A stretch of 64,000 nucleotides of DNA, from contig CALRGO010000003.1 of the NCBI GenBank assembly GCA_943357895.1, positions 15,389-79,388 of the forward strand. Reading direction: 5' to 3'. Source of the stretch: Parcubacteria group bacterium. Its GTDB lineage: Bacteria > Patescibacteriota > Minisyncoccia > UBA6257 > UBA11618. Below the pieces are notes generated by a model, which was not told where the DNA came from, did no database searches, and was given only the letters and a program-made list of their open reading frames with translations. How positions within the stretch are numbered: the stretch's first letter is position 1; each line of letters starts with the position of its first letter. Shown here piece after piece: positions 5,833-36,618 of this stretch. The position numbers and the translations under genes were made by a program.

Positions 5833-5860
5833 AGTATTCATTGGTTGCAACAGTTTTTTA

Positions 5861-5889
5861 ATAGTACACGAAGATGCTTAATTTCGCAA
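5861..5889 (-). promoter_or_regulatory. Candidate sigma70-like promoter for rplC (TTGCGA-N17-TACTAT)
   Basis: The minus-strand sequence reads ttgcgaaattaagcatcttcgtgTACTAT, 19-28 nt upstream of the rplC start. It lies downstream of the rpsJ terminator. Confidence 0.4.
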
Positions 5890-5931
5890 GCCGCATAAAA
5901 GCCCATGGATACTGGGGTTTTGATGTTGTTT

Positions 5932-5963
5932 TTGACAACGTGTAAAAAGTGCATGATTATTAA
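5932..5963 (+). promoter_or_regulatory. Candidate promoter for the divergent small ORF (TTGACA-N17-GATTAT/TATTAA)
   Basis: TTGACA at 5932-5937 with -10-like hexamers 17-20 nt downstream, ~60 nt upstream of an AAGGAG SD. Confidence 0.35.
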
Positions 5964-6025
5964 TACTTAGTAACCTGCAGGGCGTTCCTGCGGGCATCTA
6001 CCACCAAAAACCAAGGAGACTTGGC

Positions 6026-6310
6026 ATGCGAACCAACCGATATAGAGTATTCATCTTTCCTCATGCCGATGATCGGGATACGGAAAACGGCAACCACGCC
6101 CTGCGCCACGCCGGATCAGAAGAAATTGTCACGTTCATCTCTATAAGCGACGCTCTTAAGGAGATGAACGAACGGCAAATTGACTATGGAGTATTCACCG
6201 AGATCATTGACCTCGATACAGGAAATTCCGTACTCGAAACGACCGACAAAGGACGGACATGGCGTACGCTAGCCTGCGCCCACAAGCCCGCTAAGTCCGT
6301 CCCCGCCTGA
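6026..6310 (+). CDS. Hypothetical acidic 94-aa protein, divergent gene between rpsJ and rplC
   Basis: Strong SD AAGGAG 8 nt before the ATG, own candidate promoter, and an intrinsic terminator downstream. I recognise no domain. Confidence 0.55.
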   Translation: MRTNRYRVFIFPHADDRDTENGNHALRHAGSEEIVTFISISDALKEMNERQIDYGVFTEIIDLDTGNSVLETTDKGRTWRTLACAHKPAKSVPA

Positions 6311-6339
6311 GGCGAGTCTACCTCCGCCTTAGGCACTAA

Positions 6340-6372
6340 CCCCGTCGCATAAGGATGTGCGCGGGGTTTTTT
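6340..6372 (+). terminator. Intrinsic terminator after the 94-aa ORF
   Basis: GC hairpin ccccg(t)cgca...tgcgcgggg followed by TTTTTT. Confidence 0.6.
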
Positions 6373-6421
6373 ACACCCGCCTTCGTAAAAACCTCAGGCG
6401 AGGTAAGGTTTTTTAGCTAAC

Positions 6422-6451
6422 AAAAAACCGCATATTATTGCGGTATTTTTT
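6422..6451 (-). terminator. Bidirectional intrinsic terminator immediately downstream of rpsJ
   Basis: AAAAAA-accgca-tattat-tgcggt-TTTTTT lies 15 nt after the rpsJ stop, inside what is normally one continuous S10 operon. Confidence 0.6.
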
Positions 6452-6465
6452 GTTAGAGAAAGCCC

Positions 6466-6792
6466 TTACATCATCTTTATCTCGATATCGACGCCCGCGG
6501 GAAGGCTTATTTTTGAAAGCGCCTCGACGATTGCGGGGTTGATATTCATTATGTCGATGAGGCGCTTGTGCACCCGCAGCTCGAACTGTTCACGTGAATT
6601 CTTATGGACAAAGGTAGAACGGTTAACCGTGTACTTTTGGATCTCCGTCGGCAAGGGAACGGGGCCGATTACTTCAGCATCGAGGCGCCGCGCGGTTTCT
6701 ACTATCTGCCGCGCGGAGCTGTCGATGAGCTTATGGTCGTACGCCTTTATGCGCAGGCGCAACTTTTCCACTTTTTGCTTTTCTTTGACCAT
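6466..6792 (-). CDS. rpsJ: 30S ribosomal protein S10
   Basis: 108 aa, highly conserved S10 sequence ([13 protein letters not shown]...). Confidence 0.92.
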
Positions 6793-8025: not shown

Positions 8026-8087
8026 ATGTGCTGTTTTGCTTAATTAGTTATTTATATATGCGTGCTTTTTCGACGAAGTTGAAACTA

Positions 8088-8116
8088 AGCATACCAAGAG
8101 GCTTAAGGGGTGTCAA
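8088..8116 (-). promoter_or_regulatory. Candidate promoter for tuf (TTGACA-N17-TATGCT)
   Basis: The minus strand reads TTGACAccccttaagcctcttggTATGCT, starting 9 nt after the stop of the upstream Hint-domain gene. Confidence 0.5.
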
Positions 8117-8124
8117 TATGATTA

Positions 8125-9036
8125 TTATTTAAGCGTACTGCCCATTACAATGCCGTTTGCCCAGTAATAACCGGTTTCGCCTGCAGGCAAAATGTCGTAT
8201 GTTGCCGAACCTTCGTAAGCCTTCAAAACGACGCTTCTGACTATCGAGCCGTCATATGCTTCGCCCACCTTCAAGTCGCCCACCGTGCGCCCGTCTGCCG
8301 TTGGGTGAGGAGCGGATACGTCGAGCGTGCGGCCGTCTGCTAATACAAGGTGCACGACGCGGTGATTAATGGCTGGAATGCGCGAAACTTTCAAAAGGGT
8401 GCGGACGACACGGTTGCCGGTAGCGTCCGCAGTCCAAATAATATCGCCCACTTTAAGGCTGGTAACAGCTACATCGCCAATAGGAGTAGAAATTTTAGAG
8501 GTAAAAGAGAGACACTTCCAGCATAGTGTTGCTGTATCTGATGCGGAAATACAAATACCACCTGATCCCTGAGCACAGGATCTACATCCCGTAGTAGTAT
8601 TACAATTTCTAGCAGAAACGGTACTGCAGTCTACTGAGACACTACAAGAAGCGATGCAAGCGCCATTACTAAAAGTTGTATTTGATCCGCAACATTCGTC
8701 TCCAGTACAAGACCCGCCTCTTCCAACTGGCCCGCGCGACGTAGGACTTATTCCGTTAGCAGCAGGATCGGCTGACCCCGGTTGAGCGACTGATTCGCGC
8801 TGCACCGGAGCGCTCGTAACGCCCGCACTAGAGGGATAATTATTTACGGGAACCGGATTAGGCGTTCTAAATCCGAGCCAATTTAAAAAATTCACATAAG
8901 TCTGCCCCAATAAAGATTGCCTTTGTATTAAAACCCGCTGAGGATAGACCGTCTGCGCCGAAGCAAAAGGAATACCGACGCATGTAACGACTAATCCCAT
9001 ACTAAAAATACATACTATTTTATTTATTTTTTTCAT
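8125..9036 (-). CDS. Secreted cysteine-rich protein with C-terminal Hint (Hedgehog/intein-type, Hint_2-like) domain
   Basis: N-terminal signal peptide (MKKINKIVCIFSMGLVVTCVGIPFASA). A Cys-dense region follows (GGSCTGDECCGS...NCNTTTGCRSCAQGSGGICIS...LCWKC). The C-terminal ~130 aa begin CLSFTSKISTPIGDVAVTSLKVGDIIWT and end TYDILPAGETGYYWANGIVMGS, matching the Hint_2 pattern. Confidence 0.8.
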   Translation of the reverse strand: MKKINKIVCIFSMGLVVTCVGIPFASAQTVYPQRVLIQRQSLLGQTYVNFLNWLGFRTPNPVPVNNYPSSAGVTSAPVQRESVAQPGSADPAANGISPTSRGPVGRGGSCTGDECCGSNTTFSNGACIASCSVSVDCSTVSARNCNTTTGCRSCAQGSGGICISASDTATLCWKCLSFTSKISTPIGDVAVTSLKVGDIIWTADATGNRVVRTLLKVSRIPAINHRVVHLVLADGRTLDVSAPHPTADGRTVGDLKVGEAYDGSIVRSVVLKAYEGSATYDILPAGETGYYWANGIVMGSTLK

Positions 9037-9074
9037 ACCTTATATACTACTCCTTTATAAAAGCTCTAAGCAAT

Positions 9075-9102
9075 AAAAAACCGCCCCGTAGGGCGATTTT
9101 TT
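9075..9102 (-). terminator. Bidirectional intrinsic terminator downstream of fusA
   Basis: AAAAAA-cgccc-cgta-gggcg-TTTTTT, 5 nt after the fusA stop. Confidence 0.65.
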
Positions 9103-9106
9103 AAGA

Positions 9107-11212
9107 TTATTTCTTCCGGCCTTCGATGATAGCTAAGGCAACATTAGCAGGAACCTCATCATAATGATCGAATTCCATAGTAAATGAGGCTCTTCCCTGC
9201 GTTATAGAGCGGAGGGTTGTCGCGTACCCGAACATTTCGGAAAGCGGCACCTGCGAGTCAATAACCTTCGTGTTAAAGCGGTCGTTCATCGCCTCGATGC
9301 GGCCACGCTTGGAGCTGATGTCGCCTGTGATATCGCCCAAGAATTCCGTGGGCGCAATGACTTGGATTTTCATAATAGGCTCGAGTAAAATCGGCTTGGA
9401 GTTCTTAACACCCTCTTGGAAGCCCATAGAAGCGGCGATTTTGAAGGCAGCTTCAGACGAGTCCACATCGTGGTACGAGCCGTCGTAGAGCGTAACCTTC
9501 AAGTCCACAAGCGGGAAGCCGGCAACAACGCCACGCGTAACAGCCTCGTTAACGCCTTTCTCGACCGCTGGAATGAATTCGTTGGGGATCGATCCACCCT
9601 TGATTGCGTTCACGAAGAGGAAGCCCGCGCCGCGCTCCTGCGACTCAATCTTAAGCCGTACGTGGCCGTACTGGCCGCGACCGCCGGACTGCTTGATATA
9701 CTTACCCTCTGCTTCCGCGGAACCCTTAATAGTTTCCTTATAGGCTACCTGCGGGCGACCCATTTTTGCATCCACGTTAAATTCGCGGCGCATACGGTCT
9801 ACCAAAACGTCTAAGTGCAGTTCGCCCATGCCGGAGATAATAGTATCGCCGGTGTCAGGGTCGCCTGATACGCGGAACGTTGGGTCTTCTTCCGCCAAGC
9901 GGTGCAAGGCCATACCCATTCTTTCTTGGTCGGCTTTCGTTTTAGGCTCAACACGTGCGGAGATAACAGGCTCAGGGAAGTCGATCTTTTCTAATATCAA
10001 CGGCTTTTCAGGGTCGCAAAGCGTGTCGCCAGTCGAAGTATCTTTCAAGCCCACTAAACCGCCAATTTCTCCGGCGAAGATTTCGTCTATTTCTTCACGA
10101 TGGTTGGCGTGCAAGCGAATAATACGGCCAATGCGCTCCTGATGGCCTTTAGTGGAATTCAATACGTACGTACCTTTCTTGAGCGTGCCGGAATACACGC
10201 GGAAAAAGGTGAGCGCGCCCACGAACGGGTCGGCGGCGACTTTGAAAGCCAATGAGGCAAACGGCTCATCTTCTTTCGGATAGCGGAGTATTTCTGCGCC
10301 TGTTTCCATATCAATACCCTTTGTCGGCGGCAAGTCCTTTGGCGACGGCAAGTAATCAACGACGGCGTCGAGCACAAACTGCACACCCTTATTCTTTAAG
10401 GCGGAGCCGGTAACAACAGGGATTATTTTAAGCGCTAAAGTCGCTTTACGAAGTGCGGCTTTTAACTCAGCTACGGTTATTTCCTTCTTCTCAAAGAATT
10501 TGTTGAGCAATACGTCGTCTGTCTCAACAATCTTTTCGAGAAGCGCGTCATGCGCCATCTTAGCCTCTTCCTTCATGTTTTCGGGAATCTCGTGTTCCGT
10601 AATTATCTCCCCTTTCTCGCCCTCAAAATGGAAGGCTTTCATACGCAAAAGGTCGATTAAGCCCACGAAGTCGGCTTCGGCGCCGATCGGCAGCTGAATA
10701 GGAATTGCGTGCGGGTTAAGGCGGTCGCGGATAGACGCTAAGCTGTTTTCGAAGCTCGCGCCCATACGGTCGAGTTTGTTTAAAAAGCAGATGCGCGGCA
10801 CACCGTAGTCGTCAGCATAGTGCCAGTTCGTCTCCGTCTGCGGCTCTACACCAGAAACGGAGTCGAATACCACAACCGCACCGTCCAAAACGCGCAAAGA
10901 GCGCTTTACCTCAACGGTAAAGTCGATGTGGCCAGGGGTGTCGATGAGGTTTATGCGGTGTTCCGCCGTTTTATCGTCTTTGGCATATGTCGGCGTCCAA
11001 AAGCAGGTTGTTGCGGCGGCGGTAATGGTAATACCGCGCTCACGCTCTTGCTCCATCCAGTCCATTACCGTGGTGCCGTCGTGCACTTCACCAATTTTAT
11101 GCGAAACTCCCGTGTAAAATAAAATACGCTCGGAAACGGTTGTTTTTCCGGCGTCAATATGGGCAACGATGCCAATATCACGCACCTTTTCAATTGGGTA
11201 CTGCCGTGCCAT
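9107..11212 (-). CDS. fusA: Elongation factor G
   Basis: 701 aa with AHIDAGKTT P-loop and EF-G domains II-V. Confidence 0.97.
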   Translation of the reverse strand: MARQYPIEKVRDIGIVAHIDAGKTTVSERILFYTGVSHKIGEVHDGTTVMDWMEQERERGITITAAATTCFWTPTYAKDDKTAEHRINLIDTPGHIDFTVEVKRSLRVLDGAVVVFDSVSGVEPQTETNWHYADDYGVPRICFLNKLDRMGASFENSLASIRDRLNPHAIPIQLPIGAEADFVGLIDLLRMKAFHFEGEKGEIITEHEIPENMKEEAKMAHDALLEKIVETDDVLLNKFFEKKEITVAELKAALRKATLALKIIPVVTGSALKNKGVQFVLDAVVDYLPSPKDLPPTKGIDMETGAEILRYPKEDEPFASLAFKVAADPFVGALTFFRVYSGTLKKGTYVLNSTKGHQERIGRIIRLHANHREEIDEIFAGEIGGLVGLKDTSTGDTLCDPEKPLILEKIDFPEPVISARVEPKTKADQERMGMALHRLAEEDPTFRVSGDPDTGDTIISGMGELHLDVLVDRMRREFNVDAKMGRPQVAYKETIKGSAEAEGKYIKQSGGRGQYGHVRLKIESQERGAGFLFVNAIKGGSIPNEFIPAVEKGVNEAVTRGVVAGFPLVDLKVTLYDGSYHDVDSSEAAFKIAASMGFQEGVKNSKPILLEPIMKIQVIAPTEFLGDITGDISSKRGRIEAMNDRFNTKVIDSQVPLSEMFGYATTLRSITQGRASFTMEFDHYDEVPANVALAIIEGRKK

Positions 11213-11224
11213 GTATTCTTAAAC

Positions 11225-11692
11225 TTACCAGCCGAAGTGAGCAAATGCGCGATTCGCCTCTGCCATACGGTGCATGTCGAGCTTCTTTTTTACTGCCGTG
11301 CCTTCGTTGTTCGAGGCTGCAAAAAGTTCGTCCGCAAGCTTTTCAGCCATCGGCTTGCCCTTCTTGGCTGCTGCGGTAGCGATAATCCAACGGGCAGCTA
11401 ACATGTACTGCCGTTCGGGGCGCACGGGGCGCGGCACTTGGTAGTTAGCACCACCCACACGGCGACTTGCAACTTCAACAGCCGGCGAAATGTTCTCAAA
11501 AGCCTTTTCAAAAACCTCTACGGCGTTGCCCTTATGCTTCTTTTCGATGCGGTCAAACGCGTCGTACATAATCTTTTCGGCAACGGCTTTCTTACCGCCC
11601 TCCATTAAGTAGTTGATAAACCGGCCCACAGCAACATTCTGGTACTTGAGGTCTCCGGTATGTTCGCGTTTGTAATTACGTTTCTTTCTCAT
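11225..11692 (-). CDS. rpsG: 30S ribosomal protein S7
   Basis: 155 aa, conserved S7 sequence. Between rpsL and fusA. Confidence 0.92.
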   Translation of the reverse strand: MRKKRNYKREHTGDLKYQNVAVGRFINYLMEGGKKAVAEKIMYDAFDRIEKKHKGNAVEVFEKAFENISPAVEVASRRVGGANYQVPRPVRPERQYMLAARWIIATAAAKKGKPMAEKLADELFAASNNEGTAVKKKLDMHRMAEANRAFAHFGW

Positions 11693-11704
11693 GATATTTT
11701 AGGA

Positions 11705-12130
11705 TTATGCTGCTTTCTTGGCAGACGGGCGCTTTGCGCCGTACTTCGAGCGCTGTTGCTTACGATCCTTTACGCCGCTTGTGTCGAGTACGCCGCGGAT
11801 GATGTGGTAGCGCACACCTGGCAAGTCTTTAACCTTACCGCCACGGATAACGACTACGGAGTGTTCTTGCAAGTTATGGCCTTCGCCCGGAATGTAGGCG
11901 GTGACTTCGGTACCATTTGTAAGGCGGATACGCGCGACTTTACGGATAGCCGAGTTCGGCTTCTTAGGCGTCACCGTAAACACCTTCACGCATACGCCGC
12001 GTTTAAAAGGCGATACGGAATGAACCGGCTTGTTTAAGATGTTGTTGAAATACCGCAAAAGCGCGGGTGACTTAGACTTCACCTTTACGGACTTGCGTCC
12101 CTTGCGAACTAATTGTCGTGTCGTCGGCAT
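11705..12130 (-). CDS. rpsL: 30S ribosomal protein S12
   Basis: [13 protein letters not shown]... with the PNSA..K motif. A TTGCAA-N17-TACTAT promoter-like sequence ends 10 nt before the ATG. Confidence 0.92.
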
Positions 12131-12177: not shown

Positions 12178-12870
12178 TTATGACGGGCAGGCGTATGCTT
12201 GGGCGGAGAGCTGTTTTACCTGCCCCACTGCATCACGGATGGAAAGAGGTATCCTCGTCGCCTCATAGCGCGGCGTCGCGACCCGTATTCCCCAGTACGA
12301 AGCATTACCCTCTACGCGCCTGAATTCAGAAACGTATCCGGGCGTCGTTATGGAATACGGCGGCTGACCGTCGGAAACCTTAACGACAATATAATCGTTT
12401 TTTAAATCAGCCTCGGCAGAATCCGCCGGGCAATTCCTAAAAACTATCCCAAAAAGTTCGGCTTTGAGCGTAAGCACGTACGCGGAAGAGCCACTCGGCC
12501 TGAAAACGGGCGTATTCGCGGCACCAATCTGCCTACCGAGCGCCCTAAGCCCGGCTAAGTATTGAGGAGTGCGCCAATTTAATTGCGAAGGAGTTGGCAC
12601 GATCGGCACTACCGGAGAAACAGGCGCGCCGTTTTGGGAATCACATTTCGTCGCCATGCAACGGTCTTTTGAAATAGCTTTAGAAACACATTCGTGATAA
12701 CGCGGATCGCTGCCGTCGTTAACGAAGTGACTTACAATACACTGCCCCGAATTCAACGGAAACGGATCCTGATTAAAAACGCGAGTCGTATTCATTTCTG
12801 GATAATCTATATGCGCGAACGCAATACCGAACGACCCTAATAATAAAACCAAAACAATTATTTTTTTCAT
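12178..12870 (-). CDS. Secreted hypothetical protein (signal peptide, Pro-rich linker)
   Basis: N-terminal signal peptide MKKIIVLVLLLGSFGIAFA. I recognise no domain. Confidence 0.6.
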   Translation of the reverse strand: MKKIIVLVLLLGSFGIAFAHIDYPEMNTTRVFNQDPFPLNSGQCIVSHFVNDGSDPRYHECVSKAISKDRCMATKCDSQNGAPVSPVVPIVPTPSQLNWRTPQYLAGLRALGRQIGAANTPVFRPSGSSAYVLTLKAELFGIVFRNCPADSAEADLKNDYIVVKVSDGQPPYSITTPGYVSEFRRVEGNASYWGIRVATPRYEATRIPLSIRDAVGQVKQLSAQAYACPS

Positions 12871-34061: not shown

Positions 34062-34748
34062 ATGAGCAGTGGACGCCTTATCACCATCGAAGGCATCGAC
34101 GGTGCCGGAAAAGGAACTCAAGTAGCATTACTTGTCACCCGCCTCGAATTAGAAGGGCATGCCATCGCCCTATTCGATTTTCCCCAATACAAAAAACCCC
34201 CGGCATGGTATGTTGAGCAATATCTAAATGGGAAATACGGTTCACTCGAAACCATTGGACCACATCTCGGATCGTTCTTCTTTATGCTCGATCGCCATGC
34301 GGCGGCAGTGAATATTCGCGATGCTCTCCATTGCGGGAAAATGGTGGTATGTAATCGATATGTGGGCTCTAATTTAGCGCATCAAGGCGGAAAAATCGCC
34401 GACAGCGGCAAACGCCACGCGTTCTTTAAATGGAATGACATAGTGGAATACCAAACGCATGGTATTCCCGTGCCCGACATCAATCCCGTGCTCTTTATCC
34501 CACCCGAAGCGAGCCGTACACTCGTCCTTCAAAAAGCCCGGCGAGCGCACCTCGAAGGGAAGGATCTTGACTTGCACGAAGCCGACATCAACCATCTGCG
34601 ACAGACATACACAGTCTATCGCGAACTCGTGGATATGTTTCCCGATAAATACGTTCCGGTGGAATGTTTCGAAGATGGACGGCATTTATCACCCCAAGAA
34701 ATCCACGAAAAGATTTGGGCAATCGTCGCCCCTGTCGTCGGGTATTGA
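34062..34748 (+). CDS. tmk: Thymidylate kinase
   Basis: IEGIDGAGKGTQ P-loop, a Tmk-like LID region, and GGAG SD. Confidence 0.85.
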   Translation: MSSGRLITIEGIDGAGKGTQVALLVTRLELEGHAIALFDFPQYKKPPAWYVEQYLNGKYGSLETIGPHLGSFFFMLDRHAAAVNIRDALHCGKMVVCNRYVGSNLAHQGGKIADSGKRHAFFKWNDIVEYQTHGIPVPDINPVLFIPPEASRTLVLQKARRAHLEGKDLDLHEADINHLRQTYTVYRELVDMFPDKYVPVECFEDGRHLSPQEIHEKIWAIVAPVVGY

Positions 34749-34899
34749 CGCCCTATCCGCAAAAAAAACCCTGAACGCTACACGAGCGCGTTCGGGGCTT
34801 TCTCTTGCCAAAAAATACCTTTCGCCGTATGCTGACCTCGGTTTTGTTGACAACTTTACGGCACTTTTGCCATCCGTCCCAACCCGAGGAGATAGACCA

Positions 34900-36618
34900 A
34901 TGTTTCAGCTTCCCGAAGATCGCAAGCAGGATCTGCTTGCCCACGCCGACGAATATATCGGCGCGAAAGTCAACTACAGCTTCACTCCTAAAGAAATGTA
35001 CGTATTGGAGCAATTTTTTACTAATTGCGACCAAAAGATTTTCTTCGTCCACGGACTGCCAGCAAATGTACTCGCCACGTTTGCCGCGATGTATTCGCGC
35101 ATGGCGAACCCCCGCGGCATCCGCGGGGTATTTGTTGACACCTACCTCATCTCGCTCATCGCTGGCACGTTACCGGAAGTCGAAACGGAGTATGGCGGCA
35201 AGATCGCTGATTTTCTTAAGGCGAGCGATATCACGTCGCTCGACGGCTTTTACGCCCACAGCGAAGCTACGCGCGCTTGTTACGAAAATTTTACGAGAAG
35301 CATCGTGATGGATCCCGACTACATCCAATCCATCACGAACACGAAGCGGACGAAAGGATTCTTAAGCACGTGGCTTGACGCCTACGGGCACAATTCCATC
35401 GCTCGCGTGGCATCCGTCACGATCTGCTTCGAAGGCATCTCTATCCTCGCGGCAAAGTCGCTTGAATGGTCACGCCCCGGAGCCGGATTCATAGAACGGT
35501 CCACGCGGTATGTCAACATGACAGATCCGCAATGGTACCCAATTGAAAACGAAATCAGAATTTTGGGAGATAGTCTGTTTTTTGCAGAAAGAACGATTAA
35601 ACGGGCCTTTGAGTTATACGCGGAGCTTCTTGGTGCTGATGTGGACGGTGCGTTTCCGCGCTATTTGTTCGACAAGTACGGCAATGATTACTCTAGCAAC
35701 GAAGCCGCGCTCAAGCTCGGCGTCATGGGAGAATCATTCGACGTGCTCGGTAACTTTCTACCAGCCGCCACGCTCACTTCGGTGTGCGCGACGGTCAGCG
35801 GCGAAGCCCTGCCAAGCGTCTTGCGGCACTTACTGCTCGACGGCACGCCCGAAAACAACGCTATCGTGCAAATGATCCTGAAAGAAGCTGCAAAAATCGG
35901 CGCGAACCAATTCTGTCGGCATTACGAGCCGACAATATCGGAACATGCCGGCTGGAGCTACCTTTCGACGGCGGCGTTCAAAAACTGCCGTCTGCCAATT
36001 TATTTAGAAGGAGATTACCCGACGCGGAACTTACTCGATATGTTCTGTATGAAAGAAGGATTCGCAAACGTTGCGAGCATGGAGGAAGTGCATACGCTCC
36101 TCTACGGTGCGGGGCGTGCGGACCACGACAAGCTACCAAACGAATTCGAGGCAGTCGGCGTCCGCTTGAAAGGCATGATGTCGTTCCGTGGATGGCGCGA
36201 TTTACACCGGCAAGGGTTTTCGACCCACCGGCGCACGCTACTCACGCCTGAACTCGGCTTTTATGTTTACGACAAGCCGCACCCCGTAGAATTAGATATC
36301 GGCTTCGCCGTTATCGAAGAATTCGCGCGAGAAGAATGGCAACGCCTGCTGAATACGCCCGTATTCATGCGGCAGTACATGCTACCGATCGGCTTCAACG
36401 TAGGTTTCACCTTTGGGTGCAACGCGCGCCAAGCCGAATTCTGTAATTGGCAAAGGACGGACTACAGCGTAAACCACGAAGTGCGTCAAGTGTTCCTCGC
36501 TATGGAAAATGCTCTTCGCGGGCGCTACAAATGGTGGGCGCAATTCTCACGGGCGGATATGACGCCAAAATACGTCTTCGCCCGCGGCAAACCGAAACGT
36601 GAGCTGATTGCCGAATAA
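34900..36618 (+). CDS. Large (572 aa) protein with two divergent Thy1/ThyX-like segments; putative flavin-dependent thymidylate synthase-like enzyme
   Basis: GAGGAG SD 9 nt before ATG 34900. The track ORF starting at 34459 overlaps tmk and is rejected. Segment 1 reads CFEGISILAAKSLEWSRPGAGFIERSTRYV...DPQWYPIENEIR, resembling the ThyX motifs FEIEGVS...LVRHRHFSFSQQSQRYV...HAQWEIR. Segment 2 has LHRQGFS...NARQAEF...HEVRQ. It sits between tmk and dcd. Confidence 0.45.
   Translation: MFQLPEDRKQDLLAHADEYIGAKVNYSFTPKEMYVLEQFFTNCDQKIFFVHGLPANVLATFAAMYSRMANPRGIRGVFVDTYLISLIAGTLPEVETEYGGKIADFLKASDITSLDGFYAHSEATRACYENFTRSIVMDPDYIQSITNTKRTKGFLSTWLDAYGHNSIARVASVTICFEGISILAAKSLEWSRPGAGFIERSTRYVNMTDPQWYPIENEIRILGDSLFFAERTIKRAFELYAELLGADVDGAFPRYLFDKYGNDYSSNEAALKLGVMGESFDVLGNFLPAATLTSVCATVSGEALPSVLRHLLLDGTPENNAIVQMILKEAAKIGANQFCRHYEPTISEHAGWSYLSTAAFKNCRLPIYLEGDYPTRNLLDMFCMKEGFANVASMEEVHTLLYGAGRADHDKLPNEFEAVGVRLKGMMSFRGWRDLHRQGFSTHRRTLLTPELGFYVYDKPHPVELDIGFAVIEEFAREEWQRLLNTPVFMRQYMLPIGFNVGFTFGCNARQAEFCNWQRTDYSVNHEVRQVFLAMENALRGRYKWWAQFSRADMTPKYVFARGKPKRELIAE

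Follow-up and report, generated by a model that had tools for sequence, protein, structure and literature searches.

Why does a gene for a predicted secreted protein lie in the middle of a ribosomal operon, and what might its product do? The genes rpsL, rpsG, fusA and tuf are usually contiguous and co-transcribed. In the 64,000-nt stretch of Parcubacteria group DNA analyzed here (contig CALRGO010000003.1 of assembly GCA_943357895.1, hereafter the window), fusA and tuf are separated by a gene that we call X. The original prediction, made from the letters alone, placed a 303-aa open reading frame (ORF) at 8125–9036 between these two genes, which our analysis bears out and assigns to the minus strand, and described its product as a secreted Cys-rich protein ending in a Hint (Hedgehog/intein-type) domain. 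We favor, at a probability of roughly 0.6, a reading in which X is an exported precursor whose terminal Hint domain would form a thioester at the Lys174-Cys175 junction and free a Cys-rich cargo, possibly under the control of a Cys172-Cys175 disulfide. The parts of X on which the argument turns are as follows.

8125–9036, minus strand: gene X, 303-aa predicted exported precursor, supported by the ORF, its homologues and dN/dS <1; stop codon at 8125–8127
8956–9036, minus strand: Sec-type signal peptide, residues 1–27, predicted cleavage between ASA and Q, read from the sequence and conserved in full-length homologues
8710–8955, minus strand: residues 28–109, with a conserved RVLIQRQSLLG motif, a short helix (42–53) followed by residues rich in Pro/Ser/Gly for which disorder is predicted (alignment, AlphaFold)
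8515–8709, minus strand: residues 110–174, Cys-rich cargo segment with 11 Cys, no recognizable family and no confident fold
8512–8523, minus strand: Cys172-Trp-Lys-Cys175, a CxxC motif across the predicted junction between Lys174 and Cys175 (family counts)
8128–8514, minus strand: Hint domain, residues 175–303, of a subfamily like the bacterial intein-like domains (BILs) and always C-terminal
8305–8316, minus strand: block B, Ser241-Ala-Pro-His244 (counterpart of the intein TxxH), Ser and His invariant in 79/79 sequences
8134–8202, minus strand: blocks F and G, Thr279-Tyr-Asp281 to Ala-Asn-Gly-Ile-Val-Met-Gly299-Ser300-Thr301, placed by alignment to the Cat intein blocks F/G

The Hint segment starts at Cys175 (CLSFTSKISTPIGDVAVTSLKVGDIIWT) and ends with YWANGIVMGSTLK303. 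It had been put at about 130 residues beginning with Cys; the fold and the starting Cys are confirmed, while the size is corrected to 129 aa and the junction set between Lys174 and Cys175. We assign it to the Hint superfamily because members of its family match Pfam Hint_2 (PF13403), because the AlphaFold2 model is confident, and because only Hint structures resemble that model. Thus, database searches with X returned 953 homologues, most of which share only the last ~130 aa at ~55% identity and carry a precomputed Hint_2 hit. Upon rescanning, 77 of 79 family members matched Hint_2 at E <= 0.01 (best E = 1.2e-11). Some homologues exceed the Hint_2 cut-off (35–40 bits), with a match that still spans only positions 1–45 of 147, as for most members. 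Hint_2 is the only Pfam family matched consistently by the subfamily, Pfam Hint (PF01079) being hit by a single sequence of the 79 (E = 5e-4). NCBIfam holds no model for the subfamily and matched neither X nor its homologues, and a PADLOC scan gave no match. Similarity of X to inteins is weak at the sequence level, the best match to a solved structure being a consensus intein (E = 0.011), and the family profile matches blocks B–G of the Cat intein (E = 0.0014). The model of residues 165–303, built on the family alignment, reached a pLDDT of 94.5 and a pTM of 0.87, and Foldseek aligned it in the PDB to the Ssp DnaB mini-intein (E = 5.9e-8, TM 0.80), the Clostridium thermocellum BIL 2lwy (TM 0.80), Tetrahymena BIL2 and Hedgehog 1at0 (TM 0.71). 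The predicted structure shows the horseshoe-like all-beta fold of the superfamily. The C-terminal 129 aa of X are therefore a Hint-fold domain, an assignment that rests on the modeled structure and the family and not on the profile score of X itself.

The first Cys of a Hint module performs an N-to-S acyl shift on the preceding peptide bond; in Hedgehog, the N-domain is released as a cholesterol ester. Alignment of 79 sequences revealed that Cys175 is kept in all 78 ungapped rows and that Ser241, His244, Thr279, Asp281, Ser300 and Thr301 are invariant (79/79), as are Gly197, Trp201, Arg236 and Tyr291. The block B His244 aligns with the corresponding His of BIL 2lwy, gp41-1 and the Cat intein. 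For blocks F and G, the core YDILPAG-TGYYWANGI aligns with the matching blocks of inteins and BIL 2lwy. The residues that make an N-terminal junction competent, that is, a nucleophile at position 1, a block B Thr/Ser-x-x-His and a block F Asp, can all be read in the sequence of X. Given the invariance of Cys175, Ser241/His244 and Thr279/Asp281, the set of residues for the N-to-S acyl shift is fully kept. The C-terminal end is built differently from that of inteins: Gly299-Ser300 occupies the His-Asn positions, Thr301 falls at +1, and the protein stops after Leu-Lys, three residues past the Asn position. The same end point is found in 59/79 homologues, and none of 114 sequences carries a second Cys inside the domain. 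Since there is no His-Asn, no C-extein, no second Cys and no sterol-recognition region, the Hint domain of X is predicted to act only on its N-terminal junction. Ser300 and Thr301 (8134–8142 in the window, including Gly299) are invariant residues aligned to the terminal Asn and the +1 nucleophile of inteins.

This terminal architecture is widespread. Species-representative genomes contain 353 loci encoding the Hint subfamily; the best 80 of these belong mostly to Chloroflexota (Limnocylindria, Anaerolineae) and Patescibacteria (Saccharibacteria, Microgenomates and several Parcubacteria groups), with one from Dormibacterota and a few from oddly labeled metagenome-assembled genomes (MAGs). The Hint domain always makes up the last 129–137 aa or so, starting exactly at the Cys and ending in GSTL[RK], and is 50–57% identical between phyla. 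The N-terminal parts are unrelated across lineages: judging from their sequences, those of Chloroflexota are low-Cys lipoproteins and those from the candidate phyla radiation (CPR), Sec proteins with 5–25 Cys. Unrelated N-terminal parts joined to a fixed C-terminal Hint are the pattern expected of a portable processing module acting on variable cargo. We found no description of the subfamily in the literature on CPR, Chloroflexota or bacterial C-terminal Hint proteins, and the only database name for its members is the generic "Hint domain-containing protein". The partial match to Hint_2, covering only the first ~45 model positions, led us to treat it as a distinct subfamily. X thus belongs to a large, uncharacterized Hint subfamily that resembles the BILs and stands out by its terminal architecture and its CPxC junction. 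One MAG contig labeled Gammaproteobacteria (locus L080, 302–3335) bears three tandem genes, each with this Hint at its end, and the module can therefore occur in arrays. Carriage by phages was also considered and rejected, as the family is essentially absent from IMG/VR viral contigs (one weak match).

The part of X ahead of the Hint domain has the features of an exported protein. Inspection by eye of the N-terminus (MKKINKIVCIFSMGLVVTCVGIPFASA, with QT after the cleavage point) indicates an n-region (MKKINK), an 18-residue hydrophobic core and an ASA-Q site whose AxA-Q pattern is conserved in homologues, in agreement with the signal peptide first proposed for this ORF. The Cys-rich stretch, in turn, had been over-counted at ~19 Cys in ~90 aa; there are 11 within residues 110–172 (63 aa) which, together with Cys175, bring the mature protein to 12. 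A Pfam scan of residues 28–174 yielded no match. An exhaustive search of 1.84 billion representatives with the cargo recovered only two hits, namely a fragment of another allele and a spurious repeat protein, and the full-length AlphaFold model revealed no confident cargo fold (pLDDT <50 for residues 62–171). The taxonomic placement is approximate: among named homologues of X, the nearest belongs to a Ca. Saccharibacteria MAG, and one EF-G that clusters at 90% identity with that of the window bears the label Ca. Paceibacterota. In a Saccharibacteria MAG, a homologue with 54% identity sits amid other secreted Cys-containing proteins with signal peptides of similar style.

On these grounds, X would be exported by the Sec pathway and lose its signal peptide, leaving a ~147-aa cargo (residues 28–174), composed of a disordered linker and the 11-Cys segment, joined to the 129-aa Hint domain. 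Cys175, aided by Ser241, His244 and Asp281, would then attack the Lys174-Cys175 bond in an N-to-S acyl shift, which is only the first step of intein and Hedgehog chemistry, and water or a small nucleophile would resolve the thioester and part the cargo from the Hint tail. Splicing would be impossible because both the terminal His-Asn and a C-extein are missing. Alternatively, a specific nucleophile might attack the Cys175 thioester, be it an amine or hydroxyl group in the cell wall, on a membrane lipid or on a molecule of the host-cell surface, so that the cargo ends up covalently anchored, an outcome that we regard as possible but unlikely. It would draw on the same chemistry and conserved catalytic residues as simple release, it has precedents in Hedgehog cholesterol addition and in lysine conjugation by the Tetrahymena BUBL BIL2 (PMC8616854), and the concentration of the family in Chloroflexota and Patescibacteria would agree with it; besides, a second step of acyl transfer is hinted at by the invariant Ser300-Thr301 pair, which takes the places of the Asn and the +1 residue. 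However, the protein ends three residues past the Asn equivalent and has no adduct-recognition region, which argues against a specific substrate. Moreover, no partner gene emerged as conserved when the ORFs of 80 related loci were clustered, the clusters reflecting just lineage synteny or spurious high-GC ORFs, and the Chloroflexota members, already lipid-anchored through their N-terminal lipobox, would need no second anchor.

Release of the cargo at Lys174-Cys175 may be further conditioned by the CxxC motif that spans this junction. A strict CxxC occurs in 95/114 homologues, the remaining 19 lacking an upstream Cys in that place. A Cys stands at -3 in 71 of 77 copies from species-representative genomes, with the junction Cys-Pro-Ile-Cys in 65 and Cys-Pro-Val-Cys in three, followed in both cases by Leu. 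A disulfide between Cys-3 and Cys1 blocks N-cleavage of inteins until it is reduced, both in an engineered redox trap of Ssp DnaE and in the native Pab MoaA intein (reviewed in PMC3922620). By analogy with these two inteins, which have the same arrangement, natural redox gating through a Cys172-Cys175 disulfide is a reasonable proposal. Outside the cell, such a bond would probably delay cleavage until reducing conditions are encountered, the most speculative step of the mechanism.

Several observations weigh against cleavage as the function of X. The reading is drawn from sequence and a structural model. Hint_2 matches X itself with 19.7 bits over the full length (E = 0.0012) and 21.6 bits over the Hint part, aligning HMM positions 2–42 of 147; both scores lie below the gathering cut-off of 28.4 bits, and X alone thus fails the HMM test suggested with the original prediction, giving only a sub-threshold, partial match. 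Block B has Ser in place of the usual Thr, and simple N-cleavage offers no explanation for the invariance of Ser300-Thr301. The cargo has no predicted fold and no homologues outside a narrow clade, which makes any role for it a guess. As for gating, the spacing of the upstream Cys varies within the clade of the window (CxC, CxxC, CxxxC or none), and a Cys-parity test for the Cys-3/Cys1 disulfide found an odd upstream count in 6/6 members of this clade and was ambiguous across the family. Furthermore, the oxidizing extracellular setting and the even number of Cys in mature X (12) mean that Cys175 may be permanently disulfide-bonded and the domain chemically silent. The Hint fold would then serve as a structural, binding or folding module with Cys175 as one half of a structural disulfide, which we hold to be rather improbable. 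The usual presence of a Cys 2–4 residues upstream of Cys175 would fit such a bond, and the strong conservation of the domain between phyla would also fit a binding surface. Nevertheless, the full N-cleavage set (Cys1, Ser-x-x-His and the block F Thr-x-Asp) is invariant and the domain starts exactly at the Cys; indeed, Cys1 is retained in the 19 of 114 members that lack the upstream Cys, which a structural disulfide alone would not require.

The second part of the question, that is, why X lies between fusA and tuf, calls for a look at the surrounding genes and signals, in transcriptional order. Pfam labels of the neighbors were taken from a public contig 100% identical to the window (ENA ERZ27280257 k141_1965571, 206.6 kb).

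11705–12130, minus strand: rpsL (ORF; Pfam domain on the identical contig)
11225–11692, minus strand: rpsG (ORF; Pfam domain on the identical contig)
9107–11212, minus strand: fusA, encoding EF-G (701 aa), upstream neighbor of X (ORF; Pfam GTP_EFTU/EFG on the identical contig)
9074–9103, no strand assigned: intrinsic-terminator-like hairpin after fusA, 13-bp stem with A-/T-runs on both sides, potentially bidirectional
9044–9055, minus strand: AAGGAG (9050–9055) and then TAGTAT (9044–9049), the latter 7 nt before the ATG of X (read from the sequence)
8088–8116, minus strand: promoter of tuf, TTGACA-N17-TATGCT and a TG upstream, which starts 9 nt past the X stop codon
6826–8025, minus strand: tuf, encoding EF-Tu (399 aa), downstream neighbor of X (ORF; Pfam on the identical contig)
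6466–6792, minus strand: rpsJ (ORF; Pfam domain on the identical contig)

Comparison with related genomes evidenced that this slot is variable. GCA_021733325.1, at ~84% nucleotide identity to the window (protein identity 96% for EF-Tu, 97% for EF-G and 100% for S10), has this slot filled by a 276-aa allele of X, with its own terminator and the same tuf promoter hexamers and spacing. The two alleles are 75% identical in the Hint part and 31–39% in the N part. Against this genome, the Hint part has a dN/dS (NG86) of 0.20 and the N part one of 0.44, values that place X under purifying selection, as against 0.02–0.05 for tuf, fusA and rplD, the non-synonymous rate of the cargo being ~25x that of the neighboring genes. 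The dS of the Hint part (0.95) falls inside the range of the flanking genes (0.58–1.18). A diverged allele in the same slot and a Hint dS like that of the flanks indicate that X has probably occupied the fusA-tuf slot since before the split from the GCA_021733325.1 lineage; late insertion into the str operon, as first inferred for this gene, is not supported. An AT-rich 5' end had been cited for that insertion; the dip is there (the N part has 45.8% GC, versus 52% for the Hint part and 50.3% for the window), but it is modest and does not support the argument as stated.

Conversely, four assemblies with a 100% identical EF-Tu (GCA_943359315.1, GCA_943359565.1, GCA_943355175.1 and ERZ27280192) have an empty slot, a 338-nt spacer that, in the two that were read, consists of a terminator, ~185 nt without similarity to X and the tuf promoter. 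The synteny comparison proposed for this spacer thus uncovered a slot filled in one relative and empty in four, with no support for recent arrival. Searches of the empty slot for a remnant of X (blastn, tblastx) recovered only the shared tuf-promoter region, plus the terminator in the case of the GCA_021733325.1 allele. Window positions 8026–9106 and their counterpart in GCA_943359315.1 (locus L090, 3101–3439) are 96.5% identical on the fusA side and 99.5% on the tuf side. The switch in identity coincides exactly with the fusA stop codon at one end and lies one base past the X stop codon at the other, which suggests a homologous-recombination junction at the slot. With empty slots in strains of identical EF-Tu, X is, as far as these sequences tell, an old, dispensable, strain-variable cassette. 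Its position, with a terminator on one side and a promoter on the other, is a permissive slot that recombines, and marks no functional link to translation. In view of the fast evolution of the cargo and of the presence or absence of the gene among strains, X most likely serves this Patescibacteria (CPR) bacterium as an accessory factor at the surface or in host interaction and is not a part of the translation operon.

Empty slots in sister strains and the weak sequence similarity to inteins could also be read as signs of a degenerate intein or mobile-element remnant, or of an ORF mis-called in a long fusA-tuf spacer. We consider this highly improbable in view of the purifying selection just described, the 953 homologues with the same terminal architecture, the lack of an interrupted host protein, C-extein or homing endonuclease, and the near-absence of the family from viral contigs; no paralogue or repeat occurs within the 64-kb window either.

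The signals that border the slot were largely as first described. The bidirectional terminator reported directly after fusA corresponds to a genuine hairpin with a free energy, as RNA, of -18.6 kcal/mol (z = -5.3 versus shuffles) and A-/U-runs on both flanks, and relatives have a differing hairpin at the same site. The promoter attributed to tuf was the top promoter-like site in a sigma-70 scan (10/12 matches), and the filled-slot relative and the empty-slot strains keep both its hexamers and the 17-nt spacing. Scan, RNA folding and conservation thus support a terminator of its own for fusA and a promoter of its own for tuf, which are predicted not to form a single transcription unit. Both signals also occur in the empty-slot strains and were therefore not brought in by X. 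For X itself, the -10-like TAGTAT noted before its ATG is present, but the sigma-70 scan called no promoter-like site for this gene. The AAGGAG located 13 nt upstream of the start may act as a ribosome-binding site with a long spacer; alternatively, TAGTAT may be the -10 box of a near-leaderless transcript. In the GCA_021733325.1 allele, TATAGT stands 6 nt ahead of the ATG, so both alleles present a -10-like hexamer 6–7 nt from the start, which would fit a near-leaderless mRNA; AAGGAG could equally be a ribosome-binding site.

Other features of the window surround the locus. The ~615-nt gap between rpsJ and rplC (5851–6465) holds an opposite-strand 94-aa ORF (6026–6310, plus strand) with no Pfam match, which is also present in close relatives, whereas GCA_021733325.1 has 91-aa and 222-aa ORFs there; this gap is a second variable slot within the S10 ribosomal cluster. 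Just upstream of rpsL, a 230-aa ORF (12178–12870, minus strand) without Pfam match encodes a putative Sec-like signal peptide (MKKIIVLVLLLGSFGIAFA) and several Cys. The style of this signal peptide matches that of the secreted proteins that neighbor the X homologue at locus L001 of the Saccharibacteria MAG, and the contig of the empty-slot strain GCA_943359315.1 ends at the position of this ORF. Farther away, a 719-aa ORF (34459–36618, plus strand) has ThyX (Thy1) as its sole Pfam match (residues 269–478), with long unannotated N- and C-terminal extensions, and overlaps at its 5' end a thymidylate-kinase ORF (34062–34748). An Rfam scan of the 64 kb returned nothing at gathering score and called no tRNA, rRNA, riboswitch or ribosomal-protein leader.

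Hint domains mediate protein splicing, Hedgehog lipidation and toxin release, and are common protein-engineering tools. The sequences compared here delineate a large, uncurated bacterial Hint subfamily that is compact (129 aa), always C-terminal and predicted to work on its N-terminal junction only. The CPxC junction of most members is the geometry that engineers added to make inteins redox-switchable. If active, the module would offer a ready-made self-cleaving tag triggered by reduction, and a handle on the maturation of secreted and surface proteins in ultra-small CPR bacteria and Chloroflexota. A broader proposal, speculative and in our opinion unlikely to hold, is that monoderm-type bacteria (Chloroflexota, Dormibacterota, Patescibacteria) possess in this subfamily a natural, widespread module for redox-gated protein processing or ligation. 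Were this so, the Cys-Pro-Ile-Cys disulfide would lock the precursor until a reducing partner (host surface or cytoplasm) or anoxia fires the Hint domain, which would then free the cargo or attach it covalently via Ser300/Thr301 and the thioester. The module would thereby be a bacterial equivalent to Hedgehog lipidation or BUBL conjugation and would serve an episymbiont in host interaction.

How, then, does X compare with known Hint systems? Hog proteins consist of a signal peptide, a variable N-domain and a C-terminal Hint beginning with Cys, followed by a ~70-aa sterol/adduct-recognition region with motifs K and L (PMC2362128). X likewise appears to combine a signal peptide, a variable Cys-containing N-terminal part and a terminal Hint starting with Cys, with chemistry predicted at the N-junction only. 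In contrast, it stops right after block G without a recognition region, the -1 residue of its subfamily is Lys or Ile instead of Gly, there is no second catalytic Cys, and its Hint is only ~16–17% identical to that of Hedgehog 1at0. The Hog-like architecture initially proposed therefore stands as an arrangement and not as a Hog domain. Class 1 mini-inteins share with X the fold (TM 0.7–0.8), Cys1, the block B His, the block F Asp and the ANG(I/V)(L/V) core of block G, and redox-trap Ssp DnaE and Pab MoaA share the CxxC spanning the N-junction, a geometry that makes N-cleavage dependent on reduction (PMC3922620). Unlike them, X has Gly299-Ser300 in place of the terminal His-Asn, no C-extein past Thr-Leu-Lys, no interrupted host protein to religate and no homing endonuclease, and is predicted to be exported instead of cytoplasmic. 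A-type BILs end in His-Asn and lack a +1 nucleophile (PMC7765530); the subfamily of X is the opposite of the C. thermocellum example (PDB 2lwy), with no His-Asn and an invariant Thr at +1. The Tetrahymena BUBL BIL2 uses the thioester of its Hint fold to attach its upstream domain to other molecules (PMC8616854). Structurally it lies close to the modeled Hint of X, but it is eukaryotic, lies internally between ubiquitin-like domains, keeps the terminal Asn (crystallized as the N143A mutant) and is 10% identical to X. B-type BILs have the intein motifs except the C-terminal one, are reported to undergo N-terminal cleavage and occur in variable, often secreted bacterial proteins (reviewed in PMC7765530 and PMC5874633). 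X shows their qualitative features of motif content and location, as compared through review descriptions and the partial Hint_2 match only: it is a bacterial Hint in variable, often secreted proteins that keeps the N-terminal and middle intein motifs and lacks the C-terminal one. It differs in that its blocks F/G are nearer those of canonical inteins, and in that its subfamily is strictly C-terminal, has the motif CP[IV]C at its junction and a Gly-Ser-Thr tail that is invariant, and resides mainly in Chloroflexota and Patescibacteria. Judged by these motifs, the Hint domain of X is not an intein, a Hog domain or an A-type BIL, and resembles the B-type BILs as they have been reviewed.

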